Origin: Escherichia coli
GTDB lineage: Bacteria > Pseudomonadota > Gammaproteobacteria > Enterobacterales > Enterobacteriaceae
Direction: 5' to 3' (one strand)
DNA: 64,000 nt
Assembly (NCBI RefSeq): GCF_024223415.1
Contig: NZ_CP100500.1
Shown: in pieces, positions 8,298-35,394 of the stretch
Layout: every line of letters begins with the position of its first letter
How positions within the stretch are numbered: the first letter of the stretch is position 1
The notes under the pieces: model-generated
Told to the model about the DNA's origin: nothing
Databases searched by the model: none
Seen by the model: the letters and a program-made list of their open reading frames with translations, nothing else
Translations under genes and position numbers: made by a program

Positions 8298-8806
8298 ACA
8301 AAATCCCTATATCATGAAGTAAAAAAGCACCTCCCGCGACCTCCCTTTCCGGTGCACGAAAGTGCACAAATTTGCACAATTTTTTTGAACGACTTTTTGC
8401 CCTTCCGGCCCGTGTGGCGTCTGGATCCGTCGGGGATCCGTGCGTGCACGAAAAAAGGCCTTTTTCTGCGCGCAGGTGACGGGGGAACAGCCCGCGTTTC
8501 AGGGGGTAAATAGCATTCCCTGAACGATGTTGCAGTGACACAACAGAATGGCTGTATTTCTCACGCTGAGCGTGAAAAAGACGTAAGGGCTTTTGATTTG
8601 ATGGGGTGAAAGATAAGGCCGTCAAAATCGCACTGAGGCAGCGAGAATATGTCGTCAGAGTTGCGGGGTTGCGTAAGCATCCGCCCGGCGATGATGGCTA
8701 CAGGGCTGGAGATGTTGTGAAATTATCTGAAGGAATAACCAGCTTGCAGGAGAACCCGGGCAAAGTCAGAATAGCGGCAGGCATCAACTCAAAAGAGGAT
8801 AATGTC

Positions 8807-9376: not shown

Positions 9377-10432
9377 TCAGGATATGGGCCGGGTGTCTAA
9401 CAGTGCGTAAGGGTTAAAACGGATCACCTCTTCGCCCAGCCAGTCGTTGACGTGTTTCATTGCTTCCATGACGGGCATCAGTTCGTTAATGGCAAACACA
9501 CGGGCTGCCTTCTCCACATCCCCGAATGACCCCTTCTCACCCGGCATGGCCCCCATCAGCTGAGGTGGCACGCGGTGCACAGCCAGCACGTCATCACGCG
9601 ATGCGGCCTTGACGTTCATGAACTCATCCTTTGCGGTGATTTGCTGAAACGGCAAAATCTGTACGCCATCCTTACCACCTCCCGCCGCGTGGATGAGCAG
9701 ATTTTTAAACGCCCCGCCACCACGCGCGCTTTGCAGCGTTTCCCGCAGTTTTTCCATGCTTTCACGGTCAACCTGCGCCGCACCGATGTAGACAATACAG
9801 CCCGCGTGTGAGCCGTTATCGTAGTAGAGCTTGCGGAAGATATCGGCGGAATGTGACAGGCTGGCAGACAGCAGGCCGCCCAGGTAATCCGGCATCCCGT
9901 AAATCTCCTGGTTGATATCAGGATTCATCAGGTGGCATATCGTCCCCTCACGAAAGCGGTACTCTTCCTGTCCTTCCTGTATATACCACCATGATTTCAT
10001 ATCGCTGCCACGTCGCATGTATTTCGCCAGCGCCCGGCGCAGGGCCAGCGGTTCGCCAAGCATGTTGCGCCGCAGCTCAAGACAGGCATTACCGAACACA
10101 AACCAGTCCATCGCCACCCCGGCGAACTCCTGGCGGGACAGCAGAGGATGTGGAATATAGCAGCCCAGCAGCACATTACGTTTGAAGCTGAGCGCCGACT
10201 GGTGCCAGGACGTCTGGCGGGCAGCCCGTGCCAGTCCGTACCAGTCAACGGGCGTTTCAAACCACCGCCCGTTGTCGGCGCAGTACATGCTGTCCAGCAG
10301 GTCGGCCCCTGACAGCCGGTAAGGTCCTTCAAACGTGAAGGCACTCAGTGTCGGGTCGCTTCGCAGGGAATCCGCAAGGCTGCCCTGCGCTGCGCGGGCG
10401 TTCGTACGTCGTTGTTTATTTTTTCTGCTCAT
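9377..10432 (-). CDS. portal protein (P2 gpQ-like, 351 aa)
   Basis: Size and position immediately downstream of the terminase ATPase gene on the same strand, as in the P2 PQ operon. Confidence 0.75.
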   Translation of the reverse strand: MSRKNKQRRTNARAAQGSLADSLRSDPTLSAFTFEGPYRLSGADLLDSMYCADNGRWFETPVDWYGLARAARQTSWHQSALSFKRNVLLGCYIPHPLLSRQEFAGVAMDWFVFGNACLELRRNMLGEPLALRRALAKYMRRGSDMKSWWYIQEGQEEYRFREGTICHLMNPDINQEIYGMPDYLGGLLSASLSHSADIFRKLYYDNGSHAGCIVYIGAAQVDRESMEKLRETLQSARGGGAFKNLLIHAAGGGKDGVQILPFQQITAKDEFMNVKAASRDDVLAVHRVPPQLMGAMPGEKGSFGDVEKAARVFAINELMPVMEAMKHVNDWLGEEVIRFNPYALLDTRPIS

Positions 10433-12183: not shown

Positions 12184-12248
12184 TTCTCCCCCTCATGTGA
12201 TTCAGGCAGTTTACTCACCCCTTACAGGCCTCCTGCCATGCCCGGTGT

Positions 12249-12266
12249 TGTCGGCATTCGCTTACA
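12249..12266. promoter_or_regulatory. TGT-N12-ACA dyad (Ogr/Delta-type late activator site) between divergent P and O genes
   Basis: TGTcggcattcgcttACA lies between the terminase and scaffold genes, about 55 bp from plausible start sites on both strands. Confidence 0.4.
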
Positions 12267-12337
12267 ACAAACGCACTTTGTCTGTCCCTGCCCCGTTTTG
12301 CCATCATGAGACAAACGATCATCACGAGGGCCCGACA

Positions 12338-17296: not shown

Positions 17297-17747
17297 ATCC
17301 CTGAGCACACACATGAGTACAGCGTGCCGGTGGTGCAGGGCCAACCCGGAAAAGTTCACCGTGTTCATTGAACGTGGCGGGATAGAGACCACCGGCGAGA
17401 CGCCGACGTTCGTGTACAACTACCGGCTCGTGATGTTCGTCATGGACTACACGGGCGACCTGGACGACCTGACGCTGCCGCTGATTGTCTGGCTGGCAGA
17501 GAACCAGCCGCAGTTGCTGCTTAATCCTGAGCGCAACGGCGATATTCAGTTCACGGCGGCCATTAACGACGACGACAGTGCGGACGTGCTTTTTGAGGTG
17601 CCGCTGCGCGAGCGCGTGCGCGTCACCCGCAGGGATGACGGCACCCTCACAACGGAACATCTGCCGGAGCCGAAATCGCGCATCCCGCAGGACGGCGACT
17701 GGTCGCACATTCTGGAGGATGTGACGTGGGAGGTGACCGGTGACTGA
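17283..17747 (+). CDS. tail completion protein (P2 gpR-like)
   Basis: Position and size (about 154 aa). Confidence 0.55.
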   Translation: MLKSKSLSTHMSTACRWCRANPEKFTVFIERGGIETTGETPTFVYNYRLVMFVMDYTGDLDDLTLPLIVWLAENQPQLLLNPERNGDIQFTAAINDDDSADVLFEVPLRERVRVTRRDDGTLTTEHLPEPKSRIPQDGDWSHILEDVTWEVTGD

Positions 17748-20765: not shown

Positions 20766-22778
20766 ATGAGCACGAGAAAATTCAGAACCCTTATCACCGA
20801 CATCGGGCTGGCAAAGCTGGCCGCAACAACGGCGCCTGGCGGTAGACCTGTACGCCTTACGCACATGGCTGTAGGGGACGGCAATGGAGAGCTTCGTCAG
20901 CCGCAGAAAAACCAGACATCGCTTTACAATGAGGTTTGGCGCCAGTCTGTCAACCGCGTCTTCACCGACCCGGAGAACCCGAACCGCCTCATCGCCGAAC
21001 TGGTCATTCCTCCTGAAACCGGCGGATTCTGGGTGCGTGAAATTGGTGTGTTTGATGATACAGGTACAATGATTGCAGTAGGAAATACCGCTGAAAGTTA
21101 CAAGCCCACCAGAGAGGAAGGTTCAGGGCGGGCGCAGATATTCCGTGCAGTAATCACCGTCACCTCCGACGCCGTGGTGGAACTGGTCATGGACACAACA
21201 ACAATTCTGCCGACCACGGACTACATTGATGAGAAAATGGCGGAACACGCACGTTCCCGTAACCACCCTGACGCGACACTGACAGAAAAAGGATTCACCC
21301 AACTGAGCAGTGCCACAAACAGCAATTCCGAAACACTGGCGGCCACACCAAGAGCCGTCAAGGCTGCATATGACCTTGCAGCCGGTAAAGCACCCGCCAG
21401 CCACACCCACCCGTGGAATCAGATAACAGGTGTGCCATCAGCCTCGCTGACGGCAAAAGGCACCGTACAGCTGAGCAGTGCCACAAACAGTGAGTCAGAG
21501 ACTGAGGCCGCCACCCCCAAAGCGGTTAAAGCCTTACACGATATGCTGACGAGCAAGTATACAGGACAGGATGCAACCACCGGACGCAAAGGCATCGTGC
21601 AGCTGAGCAGCGCCACAAACAGCAATTCCGAAACGCTGGCGGCCACACCAAGAGCCGTCAAGGCTGCATATGACCTTGCAGCCGGTAAAGCACCCGCCAG
21701 CCACACCCACCCGTGGAATCAGATAACAGGTGTGCCATCAGCCTCGCTGACGGCAAAAGGCACCGTACAGCTGAGCAGTGCCACAAACAGTGAGTCAGAG
21801 ACTGAGGCCGCCACCCCCAAAGCGGTTAAAGCCTTACACGATATGCTGACGAGCAAGTATACAGGACAGGATGCAACCACCGGACGCAAAGGCATCGTGC
21901 AGCTGAGCAGCGCCACAAACAGCAATTCCGAAACGCTGGCGGCCACACCAAGAGCCGTCAAGGCTGCATATGACCTTGCAGCCGGTAAAGCACCCGCCAG
22001 CCACACCCATCCGTGGAATCAGATAACAGGTGTTCCATCAGCCTCGCTGACGGCAAAAGGTACCGTACAGCTTAGCAGTGCCACAAACAGCAATTCCGAA
22101 ACGCTGGCGGCCACACCAAGAGCTGTTAAAGCTGCGTATGACCTTGCCAACAGCAAAGCCGCGGCAGCCCACACTCATCGCTGGGCTCAGATCACAGACG
22201 CCCCTGTTTTTTCGTCTGTTGCCCGCGTCATCATGGGTAAACAAAGCATAAAAGATATTCTTGATTACCTTGGTTTAGGAGAAGGCTCGACGCTGCCAGT
22301 TGGCGTACCCGTTCCGTGGCCTTCGTCAAGACCACCTGAAGGGTGGTTACAGTGCAATGGTGCCGCATTCACGCGTACAAAATACCCAAAACTGGCAGTG
22401 GCCTACCCTGACCTAAGGCTACCAGATTTGCGCGGGGAATTTATTCGTGGATGGGATGACCTGCGAATGATTGACAGGGGACGCTTATTGTTATCCACAC
22501 AGGAAGCAACATATATTTGTACCGCCATACAGGCGTACCACGGCGTAGCGGGAGGTGCAGATATTCAGGCAGGGATTTCATTTGCATCACATGATAACGA
22601 CATCATAAACATAACCCCTGATCAACCCAGAACCGGTAACGGCATCCTGTACGGCAGAAAACCAGTTGACAGATGGGCAATAGCCAGAGCCGGTAAGCTG
22701 GTGAGTAATGAAAAAGACAGATGGATAGCGATCAGACCGCGCAATATCGCTTTTAATTATATTGTGAGGGCAGTTTAA
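20766..22778 (+). CDS. tail fibre protein (P2 gpH-like, 670 aa) with internally repeated shaft
   Basis: Repeated QLSSATNSxSETxAATPxAVKA motifs and a distinct C-terminal domain. Confidence 0.8.
   Translation: MSTRKFRTLITDIGLAKLAATTAPGGRPVRLTHMAVGDGNGELRQPQKNQTSLYNEVWRQSVNRVFTDPENPNRLIAELVIPPETGGFWVREIGVFDDTGTMIAVGNTAESYKPTREEGSGRAQIFRAVITVTSDAVVELVMDTTTILPTTDYIDEKMAEHARSRNHPDATLTEKGFTQLSSATNSNSETLAATPRAVKAAYDLAAGKAPASHTHPWNQITGVPSASLTAKGTVQLSSATNSESETEAATPKAVKALHDMLTSKYTGQDATTGRKGIVQLSSATNSNSETLAATPRAVKAAYDLAAGKAPASHTHPWNQITGVPSASLTAKGTVQLSSATNSESETEAATPKAVKALHDMLTSKYTGQDATTGRKGIVQLSSATNSNSETLAATPRAVKAAYDLAAGKAPASHTHPWNQITGVPSASLTAKGTVQLSSATNSNSETLAATPRAVKAAYDLANSKAAAAHTHRWAQITDAPVFSSVARVIMGKQSIKDILDYLGLGEGSTLPVGVPVPWPSSRPPEGWLQCNGAAFTRTKYPKLAVAYPDLRLPDLRGEFIRGWDDLRMIDRGRLLLSTQEATYICTAIQAYHGVAGGADIQAGISFASHDNDIINITPDQPRTGNGILYGRKPVDRWAIARAGKLVSNEKDRWIAIRPRNIAFNYIVRAV
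21296..22140 (+). repeat. near-perfect 300-bp tandem repeats (about 2.8 copies) inside tail-fibre gene H
   Basis: 21421-21600 is identical to 21721-21900 and 21601-21720 is identical to 21901-22020 as printed; in-frame (100 aa per unit). Confidence 0.85.
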
Positions 22779-23389
22779 TGAGTAACACTGCAGTTCTGGA
22801 TGAAAACGGTATCGCCACTTTCGCAGGCGATATCACTGTATATCACTATGATGAGGAAACCCGGGAATACACCTCATCCTCTGTGGAGTATCTGGCCCTG
22901 GGGGTGGGTACCCCGGCACATTCATGCGCCGATGCCCCGCCAGAGGCAATGCCGGGTTACGTGATTTGCCGGACGTCCACGCTGGACGGGTGGGAGTATG
23001 TCCCCGATCATCGTGGAGAGACGGTATACAGCACAGAGAACGGTAATCCGGTCCAGATTACCCAACCAGGTGACTACCCGGAAGGGACAACGACAAAACA
23101 GCCTGCCACACCATGGGATACCTGGAACGGTGAGGCGTGGGTAACCGATACAGAACGGCAGCAAGCCGAAGAGCTGGAGGTTACCAGACAGCAACGCCAG
23201 GAACGGGTGGATCAGGCGATGAAGTCCATCGACCTCATCAACCTTAAGTTGCGGGCAGGTCGCAGTCTGACACCAGAAGAAACGGCAAAACTGAATGCCG
23301 TGCTGGATTATATCGACGAGCTGAACGCACTGGATATCAGCACGGGGCCTGAAATAACCTGGCCGGAAACACCACCAGGAATGGAATGA
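22778..23389 (+). CDS. tail fibre assembly chaperone (P2 gpG-like, 203 aa)
   Basis: Position immediately after H with overlapping stop/start. Confidence 0.6.
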   Translation: MSNTAVLDENGIATFAGDITVYHYDEETREYTSSSVEYLALGVGTPAHSCADAPPEAMPGYVICRTSTLDGWEYVPDHRGETVYSTENGNPVQITQPGDYPEGTTTKQPATPWDTWNGEAWVTDTERQQAEELEVTRQQRQERVDQAMKSIDLINLKLRAGRSLTPEETAKLNAVLDYIDELNALDISTGPEITWPETPPGME

Positions 23390-23459
23390 GCGGGGAAAAG
23401 GAACGGGCATTCATAAATAATTCATCATGCAGGTGCCGCAAGAATGCGGCACATTACCT

Positions 23460-23948
23460 TCACATCAGATCATTTACGCCGCTTACTGTGGTATTCCAGA
23501 CCGAACTTAACTTCCCTTTCATTCCCGAAAGCATATCAGACACCGGCGACGAGGCCATACTCTCCCGCAAATCCTCATCACAGCGTTCCAGACTGACAGT
23601 GAACTCAATTTTTTTGGCCTTACCGTGGCGGTCAAGTTCGCTTCGCGTTGTGCGGACAGCCGTTATCACATACATGCCGTATATCTGCCCCACACCGTCA
23701 ATCAGCGGCCATGGGCGACCAGTGTAAGCCTGCGTCGTTAAAAGGCTGAGGGAAACCTCACCGCCGGTAATTTCGGGATAAAGCACACCGGACAACGTGA
23801 TCTGGTCGTCACCCGCCCCGATATACTGCCAGCTGGCCGAACGATTGATGCGTTCATTTTTAACGTGGCGCCAGGTTTTATTATGTTGCAGTTGTTGATG
23901 AGGCAGCGTACGCAACTCAAAAACAAACATGCCGTAAATCATCATCAT
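23460..23948 (-). CDS. tail protein U (P2 gpU-like, 162 aa)
   Basis: MMMIYGMFVFELRT...WRH...NRS...TLSGVL...TGG closely resembles the P2 gpU N-terminus. Confidence 0.75.
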   Translation of the reverse strand: MMMIYGMFVFELRTLPHQQLQHNKTWRHVKNERINRSASWQYIGAGDDQITLSGVLYPEITGGEVSLSLLTTQAYTGRPWPLIDGVGQIYGMYVITAVRTTRSELDRHGKAKKIEFTVSLERCDEDLRESMASSPVSDMLSGMKGKLSSVWNTTVSGVNDLM

Positions 23949-23959
23949 GCGAGGTACTC

Positions 23960-26900
23960 CTAATCTCTGTCACGGAAACTACCGACTGTCTGGCGGATAC
24001 GGCGTTCCATTTCCGCACGGACGGCATCACCCACCATTTTTGCCAGTTCGCGCGGGTTTTGCGTGTGAACATCATGCAGGTGAATATGCAGTTCGCCAGT
24101 TAATCCCCATGGTGCCGGATCACTCTGACGCGGTCGGGGCGATGCGGGGGATATGGGCTGGCGTACAGCCTCAACCACCGGACGGGATGTTGCCGTTACG
24201 ACGGGTGTCATTACCGGCGCAATATTGCCGGACACGACCGGTTTAATTACCGGGGAGAGCGTCGGTATAACATCGCCAGCCATAACCGGTTTGATCGCTG
24301 GCGAAATAACCGGAGCAACAGACTCAGCCATGACGGAACTGACAGGCTGAGGCGCTCTCACTATGCCAGCATCGATAACCAGCATGAGCTCGCGTACTGC
24401 CTCAAGGACAGGACGGGATATTGCCGCCATCACTGGTGTCATTAGCGGGGAGAACGTCGGCATGACATCGTGAGTCATAACCGGTTTGATCACCGGCGAA
24501 ACCACCGGCGTAATATTACCGGACAGTACCGGACGGACGACCGGAGGAATAACCGGCACATTATTCACGGACACCACCGGCTTCACGACCGGCGACACGT
24601 TCGCCGTGGTGGATATCAGCGGCGAAACACTGACAGGCGGTGGCGCTGGCAGCGGTGGCAACGAAGGCACACTGACCGACGGCACCTGCGGCAGTCTGAC
24701 AGGTGGCTCACTGACACTACCCGGTAACAGGGAAGCTGCGCGGTTAAAGCGTTCCTCCTTCCACTCACCACGAACGGCCAGCGCTTCCGGCAGGTTTTTA
24801 AAGATAATATCGCCGGGACCAGTGCGTTTTTTCGCCTGTTTCGCCTCATCCAGCAGACCACCGGTGTTATCGACGATTTTGTTCAGGCGGCGCATAGTGC
24901 CGGTATTCTCCCCCGTCAGGGGTGGTTGCCCCCCTTTGGGTTTTTCGCCGTCTTTTTTATCCTCGTCCTTTTTCGGCGGATTAATGACGTTAACATCCGC
25001 CAGAAGCATGGCAGCTTTCTCGTTCAGCAACTCCTTCTGTTTTAGTTCTTCCGCCTTTTTCCGGGCGCGCTCAACCGCCGACGGAATCAGCCCGAGTTTT
25101 TCCAGCACCCGGGTTAATGAGTCAATCAGCAGCGTAACCGGACCGGTCACCAGATTGCTGATAAACTCCCCGACCTTCTGCCCGAACGTACGCCCGGCTT
25201 CCGTGCACTTGTCCAGCTCATCCTTTGTTGTGCTTACCGGCGCGAACAAATCCACGAACCACTGCCACACACGCCCGATTGTCTGCCCGACATACTCAAA
25301 CAGCGGTCCCAGTGGTGCCACAGCCTCGCGCAGTGGCGTAAGCCCCTGCCACAGGCCGGACAAGAACCCGCCCACGACAGCCTTCAGCTGGTCCCAGTGC
25401 CGCCAGATAAGCACTGCCGCACCGACCAGTGTCGCCACCACAAGGCCCACCGGACTTAACAGAAAACCCAGCGCCCCGCCAAGTGCGCCCACCGCACCAC
25501 TCACCATCCCCCACAGTGCGGGCAGACCTGACAGTCTGAGCGCCAGTATTCCGATACCGCGCCCCAGTGAAATCAGTGCGCCGCCAGGTGAAGTGAACGC
25601 AGCCAGCAGACCACCACGCAGCGTACCGAGTAGTCCGCGCACGCCACGAAGCCGGACCGCAAGCCGTCCCGCACCGGTATCAAGACCGGCAAACAGCACA
25701 CGCCAGCCGCCAATACCACTCATCGACCCACCGAGTACGCCGCGCAGCTGCGTCAGTAACGGCAGCGCACGACCGAGGCCGGATGTGCCGGTCAGCAGGG
25801 CAAAACCAAGACGCAGTTTTGCCAGCGGCCCCAGCAACACGCCGGTAGCCAGTGACAGCGCCCCCGTGGCCGCAACCGCAGCCAGCAGTGCACCACCGGC
25901 AATCAGCAGTTGTTTTGTCAGTTCAGGGTGCGCCTGAGCCAGCGCGGTGACTTTCGCAATAACCCGGGTGAACGACTGCGTGACAGAACGCAGCGGCCCG
26001 TCAACGAGGTCAGCGACACGGATACGCAGCCCTTCCCATGCGCTGTTCAGTGATTTCAGGTCGCCGTCCAGGTTGTCCGCCATGATTCTGGCGTTTTCTT
26101 CCAGTTCGCCGTTGGCTGCCTGAATCTCACGCGTCAGGCGCGGCAGGTTTTTTTCGCCTGCCTGTTCAACCAGGCTCATCAGGGAGACATACGCCTCCTG
26201 ACCGGCAATATCTGAAAAGAACGAGACTTTTGCCGCGTTACCGTATTTACGGGTGGCCTGATACAGCTCATACAGGATATCTTCCATCGGGCGCATGTTC
26301 CCGTAAGCATCCTGCGTTTCCACGCCCAGCTGTTTCAGCGCCTTTGCTGCCGCTTTAGGCGGGTTCACAAGGCGGGACAGACTGGAGCGCAGCGCCGTAC
26401 CAGCATCACTGCCACGTATCCCCATCGACCCAAGCAACCCGGTCATGGCTGCGGTCTGTTCAAGAGACAGACCGAGTGAGGCGGCGACCGGTCCCGTATA
26501 TTTCATCGTCTCACCAAGCCCGCGCAGGTCGGTATTGGTGCGGGTGAACGTTGCGGCCAGCGTGTCACCCACGCGGTTCATCTGGTCGGCAGACAACCCG
26601 AACTGTGTAAGGATATTTGAGCTGATATCGGCCGTCTGACCGAGGTCCATGCCGCTGGCCGTTGCCAGATTCAGCACGCCGGGAAGAGCCGCCTGTATCG
26701 CCTGCGGCGTGAACCCCGCCATGGCAAGGAACGCCTGACCGCTGGCAGCATCACCTGCGGTAAACTGCGTTTCGGAGCCGAGTTTAAGCGCCTGTTCGCG
26801 CAGCGCCTTAAACTGCGGACTGTTTTTGTCAATACGGGTCAGCGCCTGGACGCGCGACATCTCCTTACCAAAACTGACCGCCGGTTGCAGGAAACGCCCG

Positions 26901-27517
26901 GCCGCATAGCCACCTGCCGCTGCCGTGCCGACTGCCGTAAATCCACCCGCTTTCAGTTTTCCCGCCATCTCCTGAGCGCGGAAATATTGCTGGCGTGCCT
27001 GCGTGACGCGTGCCAGAGTCTGCCGTTCACGTTCCAGCTGTTCGTTGTATTGCTGTGTTCGCCGTATGGCCTGTTGAATGGTGTTGTCACTGCCGGAAAG
27101 CGCAATACCGTGACGCCGCAGCTCACCACCCAGTTCGCGCATTCGCTGAACTTCACGCGCACGGACCTCATTGAGACGCTCAAGTTTGAGGCTCAAATCG
27201 TTCATCAGCTTTTTCTGTTTGTCAGACAGCACGGTTCCGGCGCGCTGAATTTGCTGAAGTGCGCTTAACTGGCGTTGTGCCCGGGCAATGCCGTTTCCGG
27301 CCTTGTTTGCAGCCTCGCGGGCGCGATCAAATGAACGGGCGTGGCGTTCCAGGTTTTTGATCGCACCCTGCGTTCTCTGTATGGAGTCGCCAAGCTGGCC
27401 CATCATGCGACGGGCGTTTTCGGTGGGACGGGTCAGCCTGTCAACAGCGCTGAAGGCGACCCGTATATCAAGCGTTTTCATGCTCTGCGTTCCCGCTGCG
27501 AAGGGCCGCCCGCTCAC
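23960..27517 (-). CDS. tail tape measure protein (P2 gpT-like, 1185 aa) with C-terminal Pro/Val-rich repeat extension
   Basis: Long helical/Gly-rich ORF between E and U; C-terminal about 200 aa made of PVxxP-type repeats. Confidence 0.85.
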   Translation of the reverse strand: MSGRPFAAGTQSMKTLDIRVAFSAVDRLTRPTENARRMMGQLGDSIQRTQGAIKNLERHARSFDRAREAANKAGNGIARAQRQLSALQQIQRAGTVLSDKQKKLMNDLSLKLERLNEVRAREVQRMRELGGELRRHGIALSGSDNTIQQAIRRTQQYNEQLERERQTLARVTQARQQYFRAQEMAGKLKAGGFTAVGTAAAGGYAAGRFLQPAVSFGKEMSRVQALTRIDKNSPQFKALREQALKLGSETQFTAGDAASGQAFLAMAGFTPQAIQAALPGVLNLATASGMDLGQTADISSNILTQFGLSADQMNRVGDTLAATFTRTNTDLRGLGETMKYTGPVAASLGLSLEQTAAMTGLLGSMGIRGSDAGTALRSSLSRLVNPPKAAAKALKQLGVETQDAYGNMRPMEDILYELYQATRKYGNAAKVSFFSDIAGQEAYVSLMSLVEQAGEKNLPRLTREIQAANGELEENARIMADNLDGDLKSLNSAWEGLRIRVADLVDGPLRSVTQSFTRVIAKVTALAQAHPELTKQLLIAGGALLAAVAATGALSLATGVLLGPLAKLRLGFALLTGTSGLGRALPLLTQLRGVLGGSMSGIGGWRVLFAGLDTGAGRLAVRLRGVRGLLGTLRGGLLAAFTSPGGALISLGRGIGILALRLSGLPALWGMVSGAVGALGGALGFLLSPVGLVVATLVGAAVLIWRHWDQLKAVVGGFLSGLWQGLTPLREAVAPLGPLFEYVGQTIGRVWQWFVDLFAPVSTTKDELDKCTEAGRTFGQKVGEFISNLVTGPVTLLIDSLTRVLEKLGLIPSAVERARKKAEELKQKELLNEKAAMLLADVNVINPPKKDEDKKDGEKPKGGQPPLTGENTGTMRRLNKIVDNTGGLLDEAKQAKKRTGPGDIIFKNLPEALAVRGEWKEERFNRAASLLPGSVSEPPVRLPQVPSVSVPSLPPLPAPPPVSVSPLISTTANVSPVVKPVVSVNNVPVIPPVVRPVLSGNITPVVSPVIKPVMTHDVMPTFSPLMTPVMAAISRPVLEAVRELMLVIDAGIVRAPQPVSSVMAESVAPVISPAIKPVMAGDVIPTLSPVIKPVVSGNIAPVMTPVVTATSRPVVEAVRQPISPASPRPRQSDPAPWGLTGELHIHLHDVHTQNPRELAKMVGDAVRAEMERRIRQTVGSFRDRD

Positions 27518-27631
27518 GCCAGGCGACCACCTCGCCGGGATCCATCAGGAAGATTTCAGCGGGAGACCAGTTGAAAATAACGGCGATATCCGCCACAAAG
27601 TCTTCAATATGCTCAAAGGGCACGACGGTTA

Positions 27632-27994
27632 TCAGCCTGCCGTCGCCGCCACGCTCTTCCCGCCAGAGTCCTGACCGGCCAAAAAATTAACCGCCACCCC
27701 GCACAGCTGAATAAAATCAGCGGACCCCATGCGCTTAAGCAGAACCTCGTCCAGTCGCGGCGAAGTGACGCGCGGGAGTAACTCAAACATCGCGTCCGTT
27801 TTCATGTTCAGCACGTCAAGCAGTGACAGCCCGCGCAGTGAACCGGCCTGCTGTACAGCAGGCGTGATTTCCACATACGTGATTTTTTTGTTACCGAGCA
27901 CAAGGGGCGTTTTCAGCGTCACGCCGCGCTCACTGGTCACGTCCGCCGCATCAGCACCGTCAGTAACAGGGGCAACAACCGGATTTTCTTTCAT
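27632..27994 (-). CDS. tail assembly chaperone (P2 gpE-like); E' presumably made by -1 frameshift
   Basis: Position between tail tube and tape measure genes; TTTTTTG heptamer near the 3' end. Confidence 0.65.
   Translation of the reverse strand: MKENPVVAPVTDGADAADVTSERGVTLKTPLVLGNKKITYVEITPAVQQAGSLRGLSLLDVLNMKTDAMFELLPRVTSPRLDEVLLKRMGSADFIQLCGVAVNFLAGQDSGGKSVAATAG
27680..27686 (-). other. slippery heptamer T_TTT_TTG for programmed -1 frameshift (E/E' chaperone)
   Basis: Reverse complement of CAAAAAA at 27680-27686 lies in-frame at ...NFLAGQ... near the end of gpE. Confidence 0.55.
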
Positions 27995-28044
27995 GCATAA
28001 AACCTCAAATCAGGGGGCGACGCCACGCGCCGCCGTGGAAAACA

Positions 28045-28563
28045 TTAACCACCAAGACCAATCGCCGAGCGCACGCGGTCCGGGAAGACGCTTTTGCCGT
28101 CCTTGCGTTCGATGTGGTTCAGTAAATCAATCTCCAGCACCGGACGGTCGTTAATGCTGAGTTTGTAGTAGGTACTTTTGACCGCATAGGTGTGAGACGT
28201 GACCTCACCCTGTTTGGCCTCCCCGGTATCAATTTCCGTCACGCGACCGCGAAGCTCAATCTCGTACAGGTCACTCTGTTCTTCATCGTTGTAGTACTCA
28301 CCGACAAAGCGCAGCAGCGTACCGTCAATCGTTCCGCCGTACTTGAGGAACAGTTCGCGGGTCGGCCCGCCCATGGTGAAACTCGCATCCAGCGCGCCGT
28401 CATCCAGGCCAAGGTCGATATTTACTGCACCGGCCATACCACCACCGCGATAGGCTTCCGTTTTACGGGTCAGTTTGGGGGCCGTGAAGCCGGTCACTCT
28501 GCCAATCTGGTTCACCCCGTCAGTAAACAGCGTGAACACCCTGAGATTTTTTGGTACGGCCAT
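28045..28563 (-). CDS. tail tube protein (P2 gpFII-like, 172 aa)
   Basis: Position and size downstream of sheath gene. Confidence 0.75.
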   Translation of the reverse strand: MAVPKNLRVFTLFTDGVNQIGRVTGFTAPKLTRKTEAYRGGGMAGAVNIDLGLDDGALDASFTMGGPTRELFLKYGGTIDGTLLRFVGEYYNDEEQSDLYEIELRGRVTEIDTGEAKQGEVTSHTYAVKSTYYKLSINDRPVLEIDLLNHIERKDGKSVFPDRVRSAIGLGG

Positions 28564-29846
28564 TAAGCACCTCCAAGCGTCGCAAATGCAGGACCAAAGA
28601 ATTCATCAGTAAACGTCTGGTAAAGTTCCATATCCTCAAGCGGCGGAACGGGCGTGTACTTGTAGCGGATACGCACGCGTCCCTGACGAAGTTCCGTGGT
28701 GCTGTTATCCACCACGTCATACCAGCACTCCGCACCAACGAGACGTCCTGACGTAACCAGCGCATCCAGTTTTGCGCGAATTGCGCTTAACACGTCTTTC
28801 ACATTAGCAGGGGTCAGCGGGGCATCAATCGTTTCAAACTGCGCTTCCGCAACAGAATCAGCCAGCACCTGAGCGGTTCGCGTGTACACCTCAAAGATAT
28901 ACGCCTTCGTTTCCGGCGTACGGTTGCCCCAGAAGCGGAAACCGTTACGGCGAATGATGGTGGTGATTTCCTTGTTGTTGAGATTGTTGGCATCGCTGTC
29001 TTCGGACTGAAGGGACCAGAACACCGGGCTGGAAATACCCAGCACATTTCTTACCGGCACGTTGGACAGCGATTTATGCCAGCCCTGTTCGTGGTCAATA
29101 CGTGCACGTAAACCGCAGGCGTACGCCGCAGCCGGGAAGACCTCATTAGCGCCGGATTTCGGGTTATGGGCGATGAAGTCAGGCCAGAGCAGCATAAGTT
29201 CGCGCTCGTTAAATCTGGCGCGGTAGCTGATTGCATCAGCGGGCTTCTTGCAGTTGTGACAGCCCGCGTAGACAAATGCGCGAAGTTTTTCTGCAATTAC
29301 ACACAGGGATTTTGTGACAGCTTCAGTATCCAGTCCGGGAGCTGCGATGATGCGCGGACGGTAACCGATGGCATCATCCTGTTCAGCTATCAGAAGTGCA
29401 TACATACCGGTATAATTACCGTCGCCATCCGTGCCACCAATGACATACTGGTCCTGCGTTTTGTGTGGGTATACAGGATGTGCATCTTCAGACTCATCAA
29501 TACCAAAAAATGCCCTGTCTTCAGGATCCAGATGACCGAATGATGTAACTCCTGTATCCGGGGCGCCCTGAGAACTGGCATCAGGAACGCGCACCACAAT
29601 CACCTTCGTGCTCACCTGGTCGGCGACAGCCTTAAGCGATTTGTAAAGCGTCCCCTTTGTGCCGGCCTTACCCAGCACATCACTGACGCGGGTCAGCAGT
29701 GTGGGTTTGTTCAGCGGGAACAGAGTTTCATCCGCGTCATCTGCCGTAGCCACAATACCAATAACACTGGAATCCACATCATTAATGGCGGTGGCAAGGC
29801 CGGTACTTTCCCTTACGCGCGCACCATGAAAGCGTGTTTCACTCAT
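28563..29846 (-). CDS. tail sheath protein (P2 gpFI-like; start at MSETRFHGARV)
   Basis: N-terminal region resembles the P2 FI N-terminus (HG..V.E...G......A.VG...TA.DAD...FPLNKP). Confidence 0.8.
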   Translation of the reverse strand: MSETRFHGARVRESTGLATAINDVDSSVIGIVATADDADETLFPLNKPTLLTRVSDVLGKAGTKGTLYKSLKAVADQVSTKVIVVRVPDASSQGAPDTGVTSFGHLDPEDRAFFGIDESEDAHPVYPHKTQDQYVIGGTDGDGNYTGMYALLIAEQDDAIGYRPRIIAAPGLDTEAVTKSLCVIAEKLRAFVYAGCHNCKKPADAISYRARFNERELMLLWPDFIAHNPKSGANEVFPAAAYACGLRARIDHEQGWHKSLSNVPVRNVLGISSPVFWSLQSEDSDANNLNNKEITTIIRRNGFRFWGNRTPETKAYIFEVYTRTAQVLADSVAEAQFETIDAPLTPANVKDVLSAIRAKLDALVTSGRLVGAECWYDVVDNSTTELRQGRVRIRYKYTPVPPLEDMELYQTFTDEFFGPAFATLGGA

Positions 29847-29922
29847 ATGTTTCACCCTTGTCTGGCTGGTTGATTTTGCGTAATCATTACCCACACACGC
29901 GGTAATCTCACCCCTTTGATGT

Positions 29923-29940
29923 TGTCTCCTGACAGCGACA
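29923..29940. promoter_or_regulatory. TGT-N12-ACA dyad (candidate Ogr site) between divergent FI and D genes
   Basis: TGTctcctgacagcgACA lies about 55 bp from plausible start sites for both FI (minus) and D (plus). Confidence 0.4.
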
Positions 29941-30007
29941 ACAAAACAGCCATTCAACGCCGCTACGGTGCATGAAACCATTACAGAACGCACCAGGAGA
30001 GAACACC

Positions 30008-31099
30008 ATGAAAGAGCTGTCAGTTACCGTTCCGTCACCGGATATCGACATCACCATCAACAACAACACACTGGCAAACCTCACAGAGCGACTCATGACG
30101 CTGTCACTGACCGACAACCGGGGCTTTGAGGCGGACCGCGTCACCCTGACCATTGACGACGCGGACGGGCAGCTTCAGCTGCCACAGCGCGGCGCACGCC
30201 TGAACGTGATGATTGGCTGGCGCGGGGAGGCGCTGGTTAACAAGGGTGTCTACATCGTTGATGAAGTGACGTGGGAAGGCCCGCCGGACAAACTGACCAT
30301 CACCGCCAGCAGCGCCGATTTTCGCGAAGAGTTCAACGTGAAGCGTGAAGTCTCCTGGCACGACGTGACGGTAAAACAGGTTGTGTCAGCCATCGCGCAC
30401 CGCTACGGCCTGAAAGCACAGATAAGCGATATCCTCATGGATATCGAAATTGACCACGCAGACCAGACCGAAGAGAGTGATATATCCTTCCTGACCCGCA
30501 TGGCTGAAATGCTGGGTGCGATTGCCACCGTAAAAAACGGCAGCCTGTTATTCATTCTGCCGGGTGGCGGAACCGGGCCGGACGGAAAAGCCCTGCCTTC
30601 GTTCGCCATTACCCGCAGCAGCGGCGACAGTCACCGCTTTCGCATTGCTGACCGTGATGCGTATACGGGGGTCCGGGCGCACTGGCTCGATCTGAAGTTC
30701 GGGCAAAAGAAAAAAGTGAACGTGAAGCGACGCAGGGAAGCCGGGAAACAGAAACAGGAGAAGAGCAGCAGCCGGGAAGGTGATTACATGGAAGGCGCGG
30801 AAGGTAACGTCTACGTTCTGCGCAGGACTTACCAGAATGAAGAAACCGCACGACGTGCAGCAGCTGCAAAGTGGCAGGAACTACAGCGGGGCGCGGCATC
30901 ATTCTCCATCACGCTGGCGCGCGGTCGTGCCGACCTGTACCCTGAAATGCACGGCAGGGTAACAGGTTTTAAAAGCGAGGTGGACAATCAGGACTGGATT
31001 ATTGCCAGGGTGGAGCACAGCATAGATGAAAGCGGCTTCACCACACAACTGGAGCTGGAAGCGAAAATCCCCGAATGGATAGCAGATTCAGGCGGATAA
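30008..31099 (+). CDS. tail/late control protein D (P2 gpD-like, 363 aa)
   Basis: AGGAGA Shine-Dalgarno; size and position just before ogr. Confidence 0.75.
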   Translation: MKELSVTVPSPDIDITINNNTLANLTERLMTLSLTDNRGFEADRVTLTIDDADGQLQLPQRGARLNVMIGWRGEALVNKGVYIVDEVTWEGPPDKLTITASSADFREEFNVKREVSWHDVTVKQVVSAIAHRYGLKAQISDILMDIEIDHADQTEESDISFLTRMAEMLGAIATVKNGSLLFILPGGGTGPDGKALPSFAITRSSGDSHRFRIADRDAYTGVRAHWLDLKFGQKKKVNVKRRREAGKQKQEKSSSREGDYMEGAEGNVYVLRRTYQNEETARRAAAAKWQELQRGAASFSITLARGRADLYPEMHGRVTGFKSEVDNQDWIIARVEHSIDESGFTTQLELEAKIPEWIADSGG

Positions 31100-31142
31100 A
31101 ATTAAAATGAGCCATCTCCACTCAGCCAGATAAGGAGAAGCC

Positions 31143-31394
31143 ATGTTCCGTTGTCCCCTGTGCGGTGCATCCGCACGTATCCGCACCAGTCGCAATGAAA
31201 ATGATTCAGGCACAGTTCGCCTGAAGTACTACCAGTGCAATAACCTCGAATGCGGGATCGGCTTTACCACACTGGAGGGTTTTAACAAATTCACATCAAA
31301 ACGCGCCCCGTCGCCGCAGGGTACAGAGCGGATACCGTGGGAAGATTTTCCGGGATCTCACAGGGGGAATGCTCAGATGAATCTTGATATTTAA
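31143..31394 (+). CDS. ogr: Ogr/Delta-family zinc-finger late transcription activator
   Basis: MFRCPLCGASARIRTSR...YYQCNNLECGIGF carries the CxxC...CxxC finger and N-terminal similarity to P2 Ogr. Confidence 0.85.
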   Translation: MFRCPLCGASARIRTSRNENDSGTVRLKYYQCNNLECGIGFTTLEGFNKFTSKRAPSPQGTERIPWEDFPGSHRGNAQMNLDI

Positions 31395-31399
31395 GAACA

Positions 31400-32405
31400 A
31401 TAATCAGGTTGAGAGGACATCATAAGGCAAGTAGATTAACGGCAGATACTTTCCCGCAACCACGGGCAAGTATTTAATTATCCATGATGAAATATGACCT
31501 AAATTGTTTTTTGCCCGCCGGAAAGCGGGCATTTTTTTATTCTTTTGTGGTTATGGGGTCATCAGGAACCACGTGCAGATTATATTTTTGTTTTTTTGGC
31601 GTTCCTCCGGCAGCAACGAGTTCATCAATAAGACACTGACACGCCTGAACATCCCGGGCATGTCTTAGTTTCACCTTTATTGATTTAACCTTATCCTCAC
31701 CGGAGGAGAAATGCAGTTCAATCTCAATATCGTTTCTTCGGAACAATCTCATACGCCCCCCTGAATATATCAGAAATGCTAGTATCGAAAAATGAGAAAA
31801 CAGTTAGACAGGAGAAACATATTAACACAAATCATTTATACCTATAGATGAAATTATAATTTCATTCATGAATATGATAGATAACTATATTGTGAACAAA
31901 ATGAAAAATGGCTAAATTAAAAATGGGCATGGAGGAATGCCTCGTAATCAGTAATACATGATCCATACTTCCTTGTTTTGCCCGCCGGAAAGCGGGCATT
32001 TTTTTGGCGGTTACCATCGCCTCACCTTCCTGGTTCACACAAAGCAACCCTGATTTTCCATGAAAACTTCAGGGTTGAGCCAAAAGCACAAAGACAGTAG
32101 ATTAACCAAGGGTACCCGCCACCTGCCAACAGGAACGGTATCCAGTACGTATTAATGACTGACAATTCACATTGCTGTTTTGCCCGCCAGAAGGTGGGCA
32201 TTTTTTTGGCAGTTATCATGGACGCACCTTCATGACACATATTAAGCAGACCTGATTTTTCCATGAAAAATTCATGGTTGAGACAAAAGCACAAAAACAG
32301 TAGATTAACCACGGGTGCCTGCCACCTGACAACAGGAAGGGGTGTCCATTATCCATGATATACAAACGAAAAGTCTTGTCTTTTGCCCGCCGTTGCGCGG
32401 GCTTT
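31400..32405 (+). repeat. array of four related modules, each a promoter-like TTGAGA/TTGTGA-N17-TAGATT/TAAATT plus an intrinsic terminator (GCCCGCC...GCGGGC + T-run)
   Basis: Terminator hairpins at about 31512, 31978, 32181 and 32384; units 32000-32200 and 32200-32405 are about 200-bp paralogues sharing sequence with the unit just after ogr. Confidence 0.6.
31537..31752 (-). CDS. hypothetical small protein (71 aa) inside the repeat/att region
   Basis: ORF with weak G-rich Shine-Dalgarno; may be a remnant. Confidence 0.25.
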   Translation of the reverse strand: MRLFRRNDIEIELHFSSGEDKVKSIKVKLRHARDVQACQCLIDELVAAGGTPKKQKYNLHVVPDDPITTKE

Positions 32406-32440
32406 TTTTTTGCCACCCTCACCAGTGAGGGTACCATCAT

Positions 32441-32659
32441 TCAGAGGCGCGTAAGCCACCCGGCGTTAACATCCTGCCCGTCAACCCTGACCGCAGAGTC
32501 TGAACGGCAGGCACCGGAAGCAGTACCAAAAACACCTCTGACAAGTTCCGCCACCTTCCCGATATCATCAGGCGCCACATTCCTCACCTCGACAGTGATC
32601 CGTGGCGTACCATCATCGTTAACAAGCGTGGCTTTAAGGCTGGTACGACGGGCAAATAA
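32441..32659 (-). CDS. hypothetical small protein (72 aa)
   Basis: GGGAGGGGG Shine-Dalgarno before ATG; followed by a bidirectional terminator around 32722-32755. Confidence 0.35.
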   Translation of the reverse strand, partial: LFARRTSLKATLVNDDGTPRITVEVRNVAPDDIGKVAELVRGVFGTASGACRSDSAVRVDGQDVNAGWLTRL

Positions 32660-32819
32660 CATCAACACCCCCTCCCTTCGGTTCGTTGCACTGGCAGCAC
32701 GATACCACCAGGAAAAAGAAAAGCCCACAACGTCAGGATTGCGGGCTTTTTTTCTTCAAAAATGGACACTACGTGGACACTGATTAAATAATCCTTTCTT
32801 AATCAGACTGTTAAAATGC

Positions 32820-32850
32820 TTGACCTTCCCCTTGCTGGAAGGTTTAACCT
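32820..32850 (+). promoter_or_regulatory. copA promoter with CueR (MerR-type) operator dyad
   Basis: CTTGACCTTCCCCTTGCTGGAAGGTTTAACC: -35 TTGACC, inverted repeat CCTTCC...GGAAGG in a long spacer, as known for PcopA. Confidence 0.7.
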
Positions 32851-32889
32851 TTATCACAGCCAGTCAAAACTGTCTTAAAGGAGTGTTTT

Positions 32890-35394
32890 ATGTCACAAAC
32901 TATCGACCTGACCCTGGACGGCCTGTCCTGCGGTCACTGCGTTAAACGCGTGAAAGAAAGTCTCGAACAGCGCCCGGATGTGGAACAAGCGGATGTGTCT
33001 ATCACTGAAGCGCACGTTACCGGGACTGCCAGTGCAGAACAGCTGATCGAAACCATCAAACAAGCGGGTTATGACGCATCTGTAAGCCACCCAAAGGCTA
33101 AACCGCTGGCGGAGTCATCAATCCCGTCGGAAGCACTGACAGCGGTTTCTGAGGCGCTTCCGGCAGCGACCGCCGATGACGATGACAGCCAGCAGTTGCT
33201 GCTGAGCGGCATGAGCTGCGCCAGCTGTGTCACCCGCGTACAAAATGCGTTGCAAAGCGTACCGGGCGTCACTCAGGCACGGGTAAACCTGGCGGAGCGT
33301 ACTGCGCTGGTGATGGGCAGTGCCTCCCCACAAGATTTAGTGCAGGCGGTGGAAAAAGCGGGCTACGGTGCGGAAGCGATTGAAGATGACGCGAAACGCC
33401 GCGAGCGCCAGCAAGAAACCGCCGTCGCTACGATGAAGCGCTTCCGCTGGCAGGCAATTGTTGCATTGGCTGTGGGTATCCCGGTAATGGTCTGGGGGAT
33501 GATCGGCGATAACATGATGGTCACCGCTGACAACCGCAGCCTGTGGTTGGTTATCGGCCTGATAACCCTGGCAGTGATGGTTTTCGCCGGCGGCCATTTT
33601 TACCGCAGTGCATGGAAAAGCCTGCTGAACGGTGCAGCGACGATGGATACGCTGGTGGCGCTGGGTACTGGCGTGGCGTGGCTCTATTCGATGAGCGTCA
33701 ACCTGTGGCCGCAATGGTTCCCGATGGAAGCGCGACATCTTTATTACGAAGCCAGCGCGATGATTATCGGTCTGATTAATCTCGGCCATATGCTGGAAGC
33801 GCGCGCACGTCAGCGTTCTTCAAAGGCGCTGGAGAAATTACTCGATTTAACTCCGCCGACGGCGCGCCTGGTTACTGACGAAGGTGAAAAAAGCGTGCCG
33901 CTGGCGGAAGTTCAGCCAGGCATGCTACTGCGCCTGACGACGGGCGACCGCGTGCCAGTAGATGGCGAGATTACCCAGGGCGAAGCATGGCTGGATGAAG
34001 CGATGCTGACGGGCGAACCTATTCCGCAGCAAAAAGGCGAAGGCGATAGCGTCCATGCCGGTACAGTGGTACAGGACGGTAGCGTGCTGTTTCGCGCCAG
34101 TGCGGTTGGTAGCCATACCACGCTATCAAGGATCATTCGTATGGTGCGCCAGGCCCAGAGCAGTAAGCCAGAAATCGGTCAGCTGGCGGATAAAATCTCA
34201 GCCGTATTTGTGCCGGTAGTAGTGGTTATTGCGCTTGTCAGTGCGGCAATCTGGTATTTCTTTGGTCCGGCACCGCAGATTGTCTATACCCTGGTGATTG
34301 CCACCACGGTGCTGATTATTGCCTGCCCGTGTGCGCTGGGGCTGGCGACGCCGATGTCGATTATTTCCGGCGTCGGGCGGGCGGCTGAGTTTGGCGTGCT
34401 GGTGCGGGACGCCGACGCGCTGCAACGCGCCAGTACACTCGATACCGTCGTGTTCGATAAAACCGGGACGCTGACCGAAGGGAAGCCGCAGGTTGTCGCA
34501 GTGAAAACATTTGCTGATTTTGACGAAGCGCAGGCGCTGCGTCTGGCGGCGGCACTGGAACAAGGTTCCAGCCATCCGCTGGCACGGGCGATCCTCGATA
34601 AAGCAAGCGATATGCAGCTGCCGCAGGTCAACGGTTTCCGCACATTGCGCGGGCTGGGCGTGAGCGGTGAAGCTGAAGGTCATGCGTTATTGCTGGGCAA
34701 TCAGGCGCTGTTAAATGACCAGCAAGTTGATACTAAAGCGATTGAAGCAGATATTTCAGCTCAGGCATCGCAAGGGGCAACGCCTGTGCTGCTGGCGGTT
34801 GACGGGAAAGCGGTAGCCCTGCTGGCTGTACGCGATCCGTTGCGTAGTGATAGCGTGGCGGCGCTGCAACGTCTGCATAAAGCGGGATATCGTCTGGTGA
34901 TGTTGACCGGGGATAACCCAACCACCGCCAATGCGATCGCCAAAGAAGCAGGGATTGATGAGGTGATCGCCGGGGTGCTGCCGGACGGTAAAGCCGAAGC
35001 GATTAAACGCCTGCAAAGTGAAGGACGTCAGGTGGCAATGGTGGGCGACGGCATTAACGACGCGCCAGCGCTGGCTCAGGCGGATGTCGGCATTGCGATG
35101 GGTGGCGGCAGTGATGTTGCTATTGAAACCGCGGCGATTACCCTGATGCGCCATAGCCTGATGGGTGTTGCGGATGCGCTCGCTATTTCCCGCGCAACGC
35201 TGCGCAACATGAAGCAGAACCTGCTCGGCGCGTTTATCTACAACAGTATCGGTATTCCGGTTGCCGCCGGTATTTTGTGGCCGTTTACTGGAACACTGCT
35301 TAACCCGGTGGTTGCCGGAGCGGCAATGGCGCTCTCGTCGATTACCGTAGTGAGTAACGCCAACCGGTTGCTGCGGTTTAAACCGAAGGAATAA
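32890..35394 (+). CDS. copA: Cu(I)-translocating P-type ATPase
   Basis: 834-aa ORF with two N-terminal CxxC metal-binding motifs (GLSCGHC, GMSCASC), CPC and DKTGT motifs. Confidence 0.95.

Follow-up and report, generated by a model that had tools for sequence, protein, structure and literature searches.

Inverted FI–U tail block as the standard layout of P88-like prophages, with a candidate Ogr-type site between divergent FI and D

Introduction

Late promoters dependent on the activators Ogr or B carry an upstream partial dyad, TGT-N12-ACA, centred about 55 nt from the transcription start. These promoters have no recognisable –35 element and are weak without activator, and their transcription needs both the activator and the alpha subunit of RNA polymerase (the rpoA109 phenotype). 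In P2, the F operon reads pF-FI-FII-E-E'-T-U-D and is followed by ogr. FI through U are co-directional with H, G and D in both P2 and 186, and U and D abut or overlap. The activator sites of these phages have the form GTTGT-N12-CCA or CAA, and the mapped late promoter starts in their records lie 55.5–57.5 nt from the site centres. At P2 pP/pO and 186 p12/pV, one partial dyad sits between divergent late genes, with starts 55.5–56.5 nt either side of its centre. The records describe a single site for both directions: 'activator binding site; pO, pP promoters' in P2, and 'activation of pV and p12 promoters' in 186. This two-way design is annotated at P/O only. The promoters pF and pJ act in one direction, with D at the end of the F operon.

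A different arrangement is found in P88-like phages (P88 and P884B11 of the genus Xuanwuvirus, Citrobacter phage phiSM and Gemsvirus 500465-2), where ...J-I-H-G lie on the plus strand, U-T-E'-E-FII-FI on the minus strand, and D-ogr again on the plus strand. Here we describe an Escherichia coli prophage with the same gene order and strands, contained in a 64,000-nt stretch of DNA (the window), and consider how its divergent FI and D genes may be controlled.

Results

Gene map of the tail region

Gene identities were taken from PHROGs and from the RefSeq annotation of an E. coli locus (GF60) that is 98.9% identical. The genes in question are as follows.

22778..23389, plus strand, G, tail fibre assembly gene (PHROG 105, E 8e-87; GF60 annotation)
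23460..23948, minus strand, U, tail protein (PHROG 76, E 3e-71)
23960..27481, minus strand, T, tape measure protein, 1173 aa from the ATG at 27481 (PHROG 28, E 7e-190)
27468..27623, minus strand, E' frame (GpE family), frameshift extension of E (GF60 'GpE family phage tail protein' at the matching position)
27632..27994, minus strand, E, tail assembly chaperone (PHROG 103, E 4e-31)
28045..28563, minus strand, FII, tail tube (PHROG 55, E 5e-54; GF60 'phage major tail tube protein')
28563..29846, minus strand, FI, tail sheath, 427 aa (PHROG 23, E 7e-119; GF60 annotation)
30008..31099, plus strand, D, late control D / baseplate hub protein, 363 aa (PHROG 52, E 2e-153)

The block U, T, E/E', FII and FI is thus encoded on the minus strand, flanked by G and D on the plus strand, and is inverted with respect to P2 and 186, as an earlier note on this DNA had described. 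G, the last gene of the plus-strand late run O...G, is convergent with U. FI starts at the ATG at 29846 rather than the GTG at 29993, its N-terminus aligning with FI of P2 and P88 from residue 1, and the GF60 annotation of D begins at the matching ATG. The open reading frame of T reaches further upstream, to a GTG at 27517. No NCBIfam family scored above its cut-off for Ogr, D, FI, U or E, and an Rfam search of 22700–32900 (E <= 0.1) gave no matches.

The structural gene set of Peduoviridae has Q and P divergent from O-N-M-L, with lysis genes, R-S, V-W-J-I-H-G, FI-FII-E-T-U-D and ogr after them. All of its genes could be identified, in the expected order, with the inverted FI..U block as the sole departure. 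The F-operon gene set of P2 and its internal FI-to-U order are retained, as are the E/E' pair and the position of ogr directly after D. The phage records nearest to the prophage are all classified in Peduoviridae. The window contains a P2-family prophage of the P88-like clade, located beside copA in the E. coli chromosome. Tail proteins are 58–81% identical between P88-like phages and the window, and U of P88 (80% identical) has the same relative strand. The window T is about 240 aa longer (P88 T is 935 aa and P2 T 815 aa), and the window FI carries a 33-aa insert relative to P88-like FI. At the DNA level, P88 matches a 10-kb tail-region query with 75.6% identity over 32% of its length. By ICTV convention, a genus is delimited at roughly 70% identity across the full length. 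On a comparison of the tail region alone, the prophage, a member of the P88 clade, probably does not belong to Xuanwuvirus.

Distribution of the inverted layout

FI is divergent from D in every one of the 88 loci whose D protein is at least about 69% identical to that of the window. The same layout is seen in 80/80 IMG/VR loci and in the phage records P88, phiSM, P884B11, 500465-2, phiT5282H, Kp4851-1 and Kp4860-2, and it spans five ICTV genera (Xuanwuvirus, Gemsvirus, Novemvirus, Reipivirus and Reginaelenavirus). In 27 complete, independently assembled E. coli genomes the whole 8.8 kb is colinear at 96–99% identity, and a query over the FI/D junction is found as one colinear piece in 1140 of 5426 complete E. 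coli genomes, or about a fifth. EDL933 and EC958 are among the E. coli genomes with P88-like prophages; in EDL933 the junction is present at 75% query coverage.

These counts bear directly on the idea that the orientation reflects a recent rearrangement of the source genome or an assembly error. The earlier note spoke of a rearrangement and proposed checks to exclude misassembly; the only support for the idea is the difference from P2 and 186. Given that relatives share the orientation, that isolated phages (P88 and phiSM) and IMG/VR contigs share it too, that the junctions lack repeats, and that the N-terminus and promoter region of D are specific to the clade, we regard the chance of either as practically negligible. 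Canonical order is kept in P2, 186, Gegavirus, Arsenicumvirus, Baylorvirus, Nampongvirus and Citexvirus, which indicates that the inverted state is the derived one. The inversion is an old, derived and clade-wide norm of P88-like phages that have already been sequenced. From the tiers of protein identity we infer a single origin. Since P88 can be induced and grows lytically, and phiSM shows spontaneous activity (PMC5285337, PMC6456863), the inversion can be considered fixed and functional. Our literature searches turned up no paper that explicitly describes the FI..U inversion for P88-like phages.

The G/U junction

One inversion junction is marked by a hairpin in the 70-bp gap between the convergent genes G and U.

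23433..23452, either strand, 8-bp GC-rich hairpin GTGCCGCA-AGAA-TGCGGCAC

The hairpin folds on both strands (minus-strand z = –2.4) and is a candidate bidirectional terminator, judging from its sequence. It was not listed by a terminator scan because it has no canonical T-run. No inverted repeat linking the G/U and FI/D junctions was found, in line with the earlier note. In P88, P884B11, phiSM and 500465-2, the G/U junction holds a DNA invertase gene together with an invertible tail-fibre segment, and the neighbouring invertase might have caused the inversion. This explanation is weakened by clade members that have no invertase, namely phiT5282H and the window prophage, the latter lacking the invertible segment as well.

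An Ogr-type dyad between FI and D

The 161-bp gap between FI and D contains a single dyad that resembles an Ogr-type site, and the gap between P and O contains another.

29920..29943, either strand, Ogr-type activator site TGTTGT-N12-ACAACA, centre 29931.5, identified from sequence and conservation
12246..12269, either strand, activator site TGTTGT-N12-ACAACA, between divergent P (ATG 12183, minus strand) and O (ATG 12339, plus strand)

The earlier note had recognised the cores of both (TGT-N12-ACA at 29923–29940 and 12249–12266) and had seen one as mirroring the other, a likeness that extends to the full 6+6 bases. The bare core is uninformative by itself: it occurs 12 times against 14.4 expected, which is chance level, and we therefore relied on the extended dyad and on its conservation in relatives. 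Perfect TGTTGT-N12-ACAACA occurs exactly twice in the 64 kb, at these two positions. For GTTGT-N12-ACAAC the expectation is 0.08, and the probability of two or more occurrences is 0.0015.

Across 64 distinct relatives, the ACAAC half is invariant and the other half reads T(G/C)T in 64/64. In most relatives this second half is TCT instead of TGT, so that the dyad is only partial there, as it also is in P2 and 186 with their CCA or CAA. The P88-like FI/D gap is homologous to that of the window, with the same ACAAC half-site and –10 elements, and differs in having TCT where the window has TGT. The 64 sequences are related to one another and fall into 12 groups at 93% identity, so counts of this kind overstate independence. 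On the FI sense strand the invariant half is GTTGT, distal to FI, and the half nearer to FI is degenerate, a polarity shared by P2 pF and 186 pJ (GTTGT-N12-CCA).

Could the match at 29923–29940 be fortuitous, with no regulatory role? The frequency of the bare motif leaves room for this, as does the instance at 17434 in R, which P88 does not conserve. However, the 12-base form is confined to two gaps between divergent late genes, a coincidence of P about 0.0015 before location is considered, and the ACAAC half is conserved with both flanking –10 elements across five genera. We consider a chance match very improbable. The FI/D dyad is a credible candidate for an Ogr-type site, in a position to serve FI as well as D.

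Predicted promoters for FI and D

On each side of the dyad lies a –10-like element.

29883..29888, minus strand, predicted FI –10 hexamer AATGAT, predicted start near 29876
29973..29981, plus strand, predicted extended –10 of the D promoter, TGa-AACCAT, predicted start near 29988

A consensus scan of 29847–30007 on both strands found no sigma-70 –35/–10 pair; the gap thus shows the absence of a recognisable –35 that is typical of Ogr/B-dependent promoters. On the FI side, a hexamer of the form nAnnAT is present in 64/64 distinct relatives, its 3' T being 48.5 nt from the dyad centre (49.5 in one). On the D side, TGn-nAnnnT is found in 64/64 distinct sequences and does not vary among 12 representatives that share less than 93% identity. 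Judged by the –10-like hexamers, the FI start would lie 55.5 nt and the D start 56.5 nt from the centre of the dyad, close to the figure of about 55 bp in the earlier note, both values being distances to predicted starts. Each –10 ends 48.5–49.5 nt from the centre, which predicts starts about 56 nt from the dyad, matching the mapped late promoters of P2 and 186.

An alternative is that the site serves FI only, as PF does in P2, and that transcription of D starts at an extended –10 promoter which needs no activator and adjoins the site by chance. Extended –10 sigma-70 promoters can be active with neither a –35 element nor an activator, and the TGn on the D side is invariant. Moreover, the invariant half-site has PF polarity toward FI, so that FI alone can explain its conservation. 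Several observations speak against this alternative, which we consider unlikely, though it deserves to be taken seriously. The –7 T of the D hexamer lies 48.5–49.5 nt from the dyad centre in 64/64 even though the intervening sequence diverges, and this spacing equals that of the FI, P and O promoters of the prophage and of the mapped P2/186 promoters. In addition, D is a late structural protein required alongside FI–U, and D-ogr transcription without regulation could turn on the late genes in a lysogen.

The reading in which one site serves both genes has a close parallel within the prophage, at the P/O gap.

12299–12307, plus strand, O-side –10-like element TGc-CATCAT, ending 49.5 nt from the P/O site centre
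12213–12208, minus strand, P-side –10-like element TAAACT, ending 49.5 nt from the P/O site centre

The P/O site corresponds directly to the single activator site annotated at P2 pP/pO and at 186 p12/pV. By analogy, the FI/D region is a predicted second instance of the known design in which one site serves two divergent promoters; as P2 and 186 already annotate one site each for pP/pO and p12/pV, the design is not new in principle. Unlike in P2 and 186, the F site of the window is flanked by a second, outward-facing predicted promoter, for D, and both window sites are perfect 6+6 palindromes.

The remainder of the late regulon

We detected no PV-type site between O and G. A TGT-N12-ACA at 17434–17451 inside R was evaluated as a PV equivalent and rejected, as P88, phiSM and 500465-2 do not conserve it. 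Scanning both strands of the prophage (8000–32000) for GTTGT-N12-nnA gave no plausible late site inside the O–G run. What looks like a 131-bp gap in front of R is probably occupied by a lysC-like frame, by analogy with P2.

Downstream of D is a gene for a putative activator, preceded by a –10-like hexamer.

31103..31108, plus strand, TAAAAT, –10-like hexamer in the 43-bp D-ogr gap
31143..31394, plus strand, Ogr/Delta-family zinc-finger activator gene, 83 aa (PF04606; PHROG 603; GF60 'ogr/Delta-like zinc finger family protein')

The product matches Pfam PF04606 (Ogr_Delta) with E 7.8e-14 over model positions 1–45 of 47. Its cysteines are spaced C4-X2-C7-X24-C32-X4-C37, with a loop of X24 where the P2 Ogr finger (C-X2-C-X22-C-X4-C) has X22. 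As it scores 40 bits against the NCBIfam Ogr equivalog, whose cut-off is 116, we class it as a member of the family and not as an equivalog. TAnAAT is a conserved element of the D-ogr gap in most of 13 relatives, and the position of TAAAAT is analogous to P2 Pogr and 186 pB, making it a candidate promoter for ogr alone.

Discussion

We think it fairly likely, on sequence grounds, that an inversion ancestral to the clade carried the PF activator site together with FI–U, and that one Ogr-type site now drives FI–U and D divergently. In the ancestor of the whole clade, the inverted segment would have comprised the PF activator site and FI-FII-E/E'-T-U, with one breakpoint upstream of the activator site of the F promoter and the other at the U/D boundary, where canonical phages overlap U and D. 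This would have uncoupled D from U and left it across the old PF activator site, in need of a promoter of its own. The conserved extended –10, at mirror-image distance from the activator site, may be that promoter. Most likely, the site at 29920–29943 would activate FI–U leftward and D rightward, possibly into ogr. The 83-aa Ogr-like protein would bind the site, and the D promoter would depend on the activator. Control of FI and D may thus work like that of P2 pP/pO, 186 p12/pV and the prophage's own P/O site. The earlier note had suggested that the late regulon is still wired to express both FI–U and D. Its candidate dyad is indeed suitably placed and conserved; what does not stand is the view of the inversion as a noteworthy rearrangement of the source genome.

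A broader version of this scheme is that the inversion turned a one-way PF site into a second two-way control region, the extended –10 promoter of D having newly arisen at mirror-image distance from a pre-existing symmetric site, and that the whole late regulon, with its four transcription units, runs on two Ogr sites. We put this forward tentatively, with a slight lean toward doubt. No description of a symmetric activator site serving a new promoter after an inversion was found in the literature that could be searched.

These findings have consequences for annotation. About every fifth complete E. coli genome carries a P88-like prophage, and the inverted block is the standard layout of these; a tail 'inversion' in such a prophage is no reason to flag a rearrangement or a faulty assembly. 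In this clade D, which in the prophage described here has its own ribosome-binding site and a clade-specific N-terminus of about 22 residues, should be annotated with its own start and its own (predicted) promoter, not as translationally coupled to U. More generally, the clade would show how a late regulon can stay coordinated after its operon is split: a symmetric site that moves with the block can serve a new promoter. If the two-way reuse of the PF site is true, it would represent a natural, datable case of promoter birth via a palindromic activator site.

The inverted tail-gene block and its relatives

Open reading frames, PHROG matches and RefSeq annotation of GF60 (a 98.9%-identical E. 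coli locus) give concordant gene assignments for the P2-family prophage, and the coordinates of the earlier note proved accurate.

Genes and elements of the prophage
9377-10432, -, Q
10432-12183, -, P
12339 onward, +, O-N-M-L, lysis, R-S, V-W-J-I (S and V overlap)
20766-22778, +, H
22778-23389, +, G
23433-23452, 8-bp GC hairpin at the convergent G/U junction
23460-23948, -, U
23960-27481, -, T
27468-27623, -, E'
27632-27994, -, E
28045-28563, -, FII
28563-29846, -, FI (ATG at 29846)
29888 to 29883, -, predicted FI -10 (AATGAT)
29973-74 and 29976-81, +, predicted D extended -10 (TG, AACCAT)
30008-31099, +, D (ATG at 30008)
31143-31394, +, ogr-like (83 aa; Pfam PF04606, E 7.8e-14)
From 32890, copA, the host gene after ogr-like

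In the records of P2 and 186, H, G and FI through D all lie on one strand, and the FI–U block of the window is therefore inverted relative to both, as the earlier note had proposed. Its failure to find inverted repeats was also reproduced: a search of both junctions revealed none linking G/U and FI/D. What did not survive is the idea of a rearrangement peculiar to this genome, as the orientation is a lineage norm. Of 5426 complete E. coli genomes, 27 carry the entire 8.8 kb colinearly, with 96-99% identity. The FI/D junction, probed with an 851-bp segment that begins within FI, spans the gap and ends within D, gave a single colinear match in 1140 of them (e.g. EC958), and O157:H7 EDL933 was matched at 75% query coverage. 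Annotated order and strands are identical to those of the window in Xuanwuvirus P88, P884B11 and phiSM, in 500465-2 (Gemsvirus) and in Enterobacter phage phiT5282H (Novemvirus); two unannotated Klebsiella phage records (Reipivirus, Reginaelenavirus) have the inverted layout by tblastn. In each of the 80 IMG/VR loci that a search with the D protein recovered, FI is opposite D, as is U wherever it occurs; counting all loci with a D identity of about 69% or more, FI is opposite D in 88/88. Together, the 27 colinear genomes, the uniformity of these loci and the 1140 junction matches exclude both a recent inversion and misassembly.

Canonical order is kept in P2, 186, Gegavirus, Arsenicumvirus, Baylorvirus, Nampongvirus and Citexvirus, whose D proteins are only about 42-52% identical; hence the inverted state is derived, old and common to a clade. 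That the layout works is clear from P88, an inducible, lytic phage, and from the spontaneous activity of phiSM (PMC5285337, PMC6456863). Structurally it is an ordinary arrangement: annotated genomes already deposited for named genera have it, as do more than a thousand E. coli genomes. The limited literature searched yielded no remark on the inverted layout or on a bidirectional FI/D promoter.

Variable features of the tail genes and right end

At 1173 aa, the tape measure T of the window is longer than those of P88 (935 aa) and P2 (815 aa). A surplus of about 185 residues (roughly 913-1097) is unalignable with P88 T and could point to a longer tail or an inserted domain. The GF60 copy, 98% identical, is labelled a pseudogene in RefSeq, yet its frame is open. 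Compared with P88 FI, the sheath protein FI has an insertion of 33 aa (about residues 93-128), at a position coinciding with a short variable segment of P2 FI. In P88, phiSM, P884B11 and 500465-2, an alternative tail-fibre segment and a DNA invertase sit exactly at the G/U junction (7749-9897 of L001, a related locus); neither is present there in the window prophage (23390-23459) or phiT5282H. This end of the inversion is a hot-spot for cargo, comparable to Z/fun in P2.

The ogr–copA interval contains three copies of a ~140-nt unit (31400-31542, 32066-32211 and 32269-32414), each with a conserved sigma-70-like GGTTGAG-N17-GTAGATTAAC, a variable stem-loop and an intrinsic terminator (TTTTGCCCGCC...GGGCATTTTTTT); the terminator recurs a fourth time at 31976-32005. 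The units, for which Rfam gave no match at E <= 0.1, may be tandem small-RNA genes at the prophage's right end.

A conserved dyad between FI and D

Plain TGT-N12-ACA is uninformative in the window (12 matches versus 14.4 expected). The dyads that the earlier note placed in the FI/D and P/O gaps are nonetheless real: each extends to a perfect TGTTGT-N12-ACAACA, the only two such in 64 kb; the runners-up differ at two or more positions, and none of them falls at a relevant place. Under a first-order Markov model, 0.08 sites of the form GTTGT-N12-ACAAC are expected and P(>=2) = 0.0015, a value that leaves out the placement of both sites in the two divergent late-gene gaps. The rarity of the extended motif, these statistics and conservation among relatives exclude a chance dyad. 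We rejected a plain match at 17434 inside gene R, which relatives do not conserve. Another (TGTTGCAGTGACACAACA, 8528-8545) precedes, by about 170 bp, a hypothetical accessory ORF (8717-9310, +) adjoining the portal gene Q.

Given the two ATG positions, the FI/D gap is 161 bp. Gaps from 89 loci comprised 64 distinct sequences, in 12 groups at 93% identity. Throughout, the D-side half-site ACAAC(A)AA is invariant and the FI-side half-site is T-x-T (TGT or TCT). Also invariant or nearly so are TG-n-nAnnnT on the D side, an extended -10 that includes the critical A at -11 and T at -7, and nAnnAT on the FI side. In 64/64 sequences the -7 T on either side is 48.5-49.5 nt away from the dyad centre, and the intervening sequence diverges. 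At the P/O site of the window, -10-like elements (TGc-CATCAT for O, TAAACT for P) lie at 49.5 nt on both sides. This spacing predicts starts 55.5-56.5 nt from the site centres; mapped starts in the P2 and 186 GenBank entries are 55.5-57.5 nt from theirs.

In L013 (IMG/VR 2778261447_000012), a related locus with D 98% identical to that of the window, the FI-proximal gap sequence is identical to the window's but gives way about 50 nt in to a different one, with TCT as left half and another N12. The switch suggests a recombination event within the control region, whose geometry is preserved despite it.

Predicted control of the split operon

Sharing of one site by divergent late promoters is an established design, since the P2 record gives one 'activator binding site; pO, pP promoters' with starts on both sides, the 186 record one B site for 'activation of pV and p12 promoters', and one dyad of Smp131 is assigned to both PP' and PO' (PMC3931495). 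The FI/D region has the same predicted geometry as these P2 and 186 sites, and most likely serves as a second late control region working in both directions. Here the Ogr-like protein would bind the predicted site at 29920-29943 and activate FI–U leftward and D rightward. Of the earlier suggestion that the late regulon still drives both units, the dyad and its mirroring of the P/O geometry stand, and binding, starts and activator dependence are predictions.

Polarity of the site bears on its origin. In P2 pF and pV and 186 pJ, the well-conserved half GTTGT is promoter-distal and the proximal half degenerate (CCA or CAA). Read on the FI sense strand, the invariant half of the clade's FI/D site is GTTGT and lies distal to FI, with ACA or AGA proximal. 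Because this polarity matches P2 and 186, the site looks like that of PF, the P2 F-operon promoter, carried along with FI, in which case one inversion breakpoint would lie upstream of it. We infer that the second was the U/D boundary. U and D abut or overlap in canonical phages; D of the window has its own ribosome-binding site, and the first ~22 residues of clade D are unalignable with canonical D and variable within the clade.

The main rival, in which the site acts on FI only and D is expressed from an activator-independent extended -10 promoter, fits this FI-type polarity and the TG motif of D; we consider it unlikely, however, as the mirror spacing of the D and FI -10 elements is strictly conserved and D must be co-expressed with the tail genes.

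Besides the predicted bidirectional control of FI and D, a separate promoter for ogr is probable. In the short D–ogr gap, a TAnAAT hexamer is conserved across the clade, at a position analogous to P2 Pogr and 186 pB, suggesting a promoter for ogr alone; this would remove any circularity in switching on ogr. Two adjacent TAAAAT hexamers (31097-31108) overlap the D stop codon in the window. The G/U hairpin could terminate both the G and U units. Because a scan of the prophage late region found no PV-like site between O and G, a negative result rather than proof, the late regulon may run from just two sites. Read in this regulatory way, FI/D adds a new, predicted case to a known design, and is a modestly interesting example of a split operon kept within its regulon.
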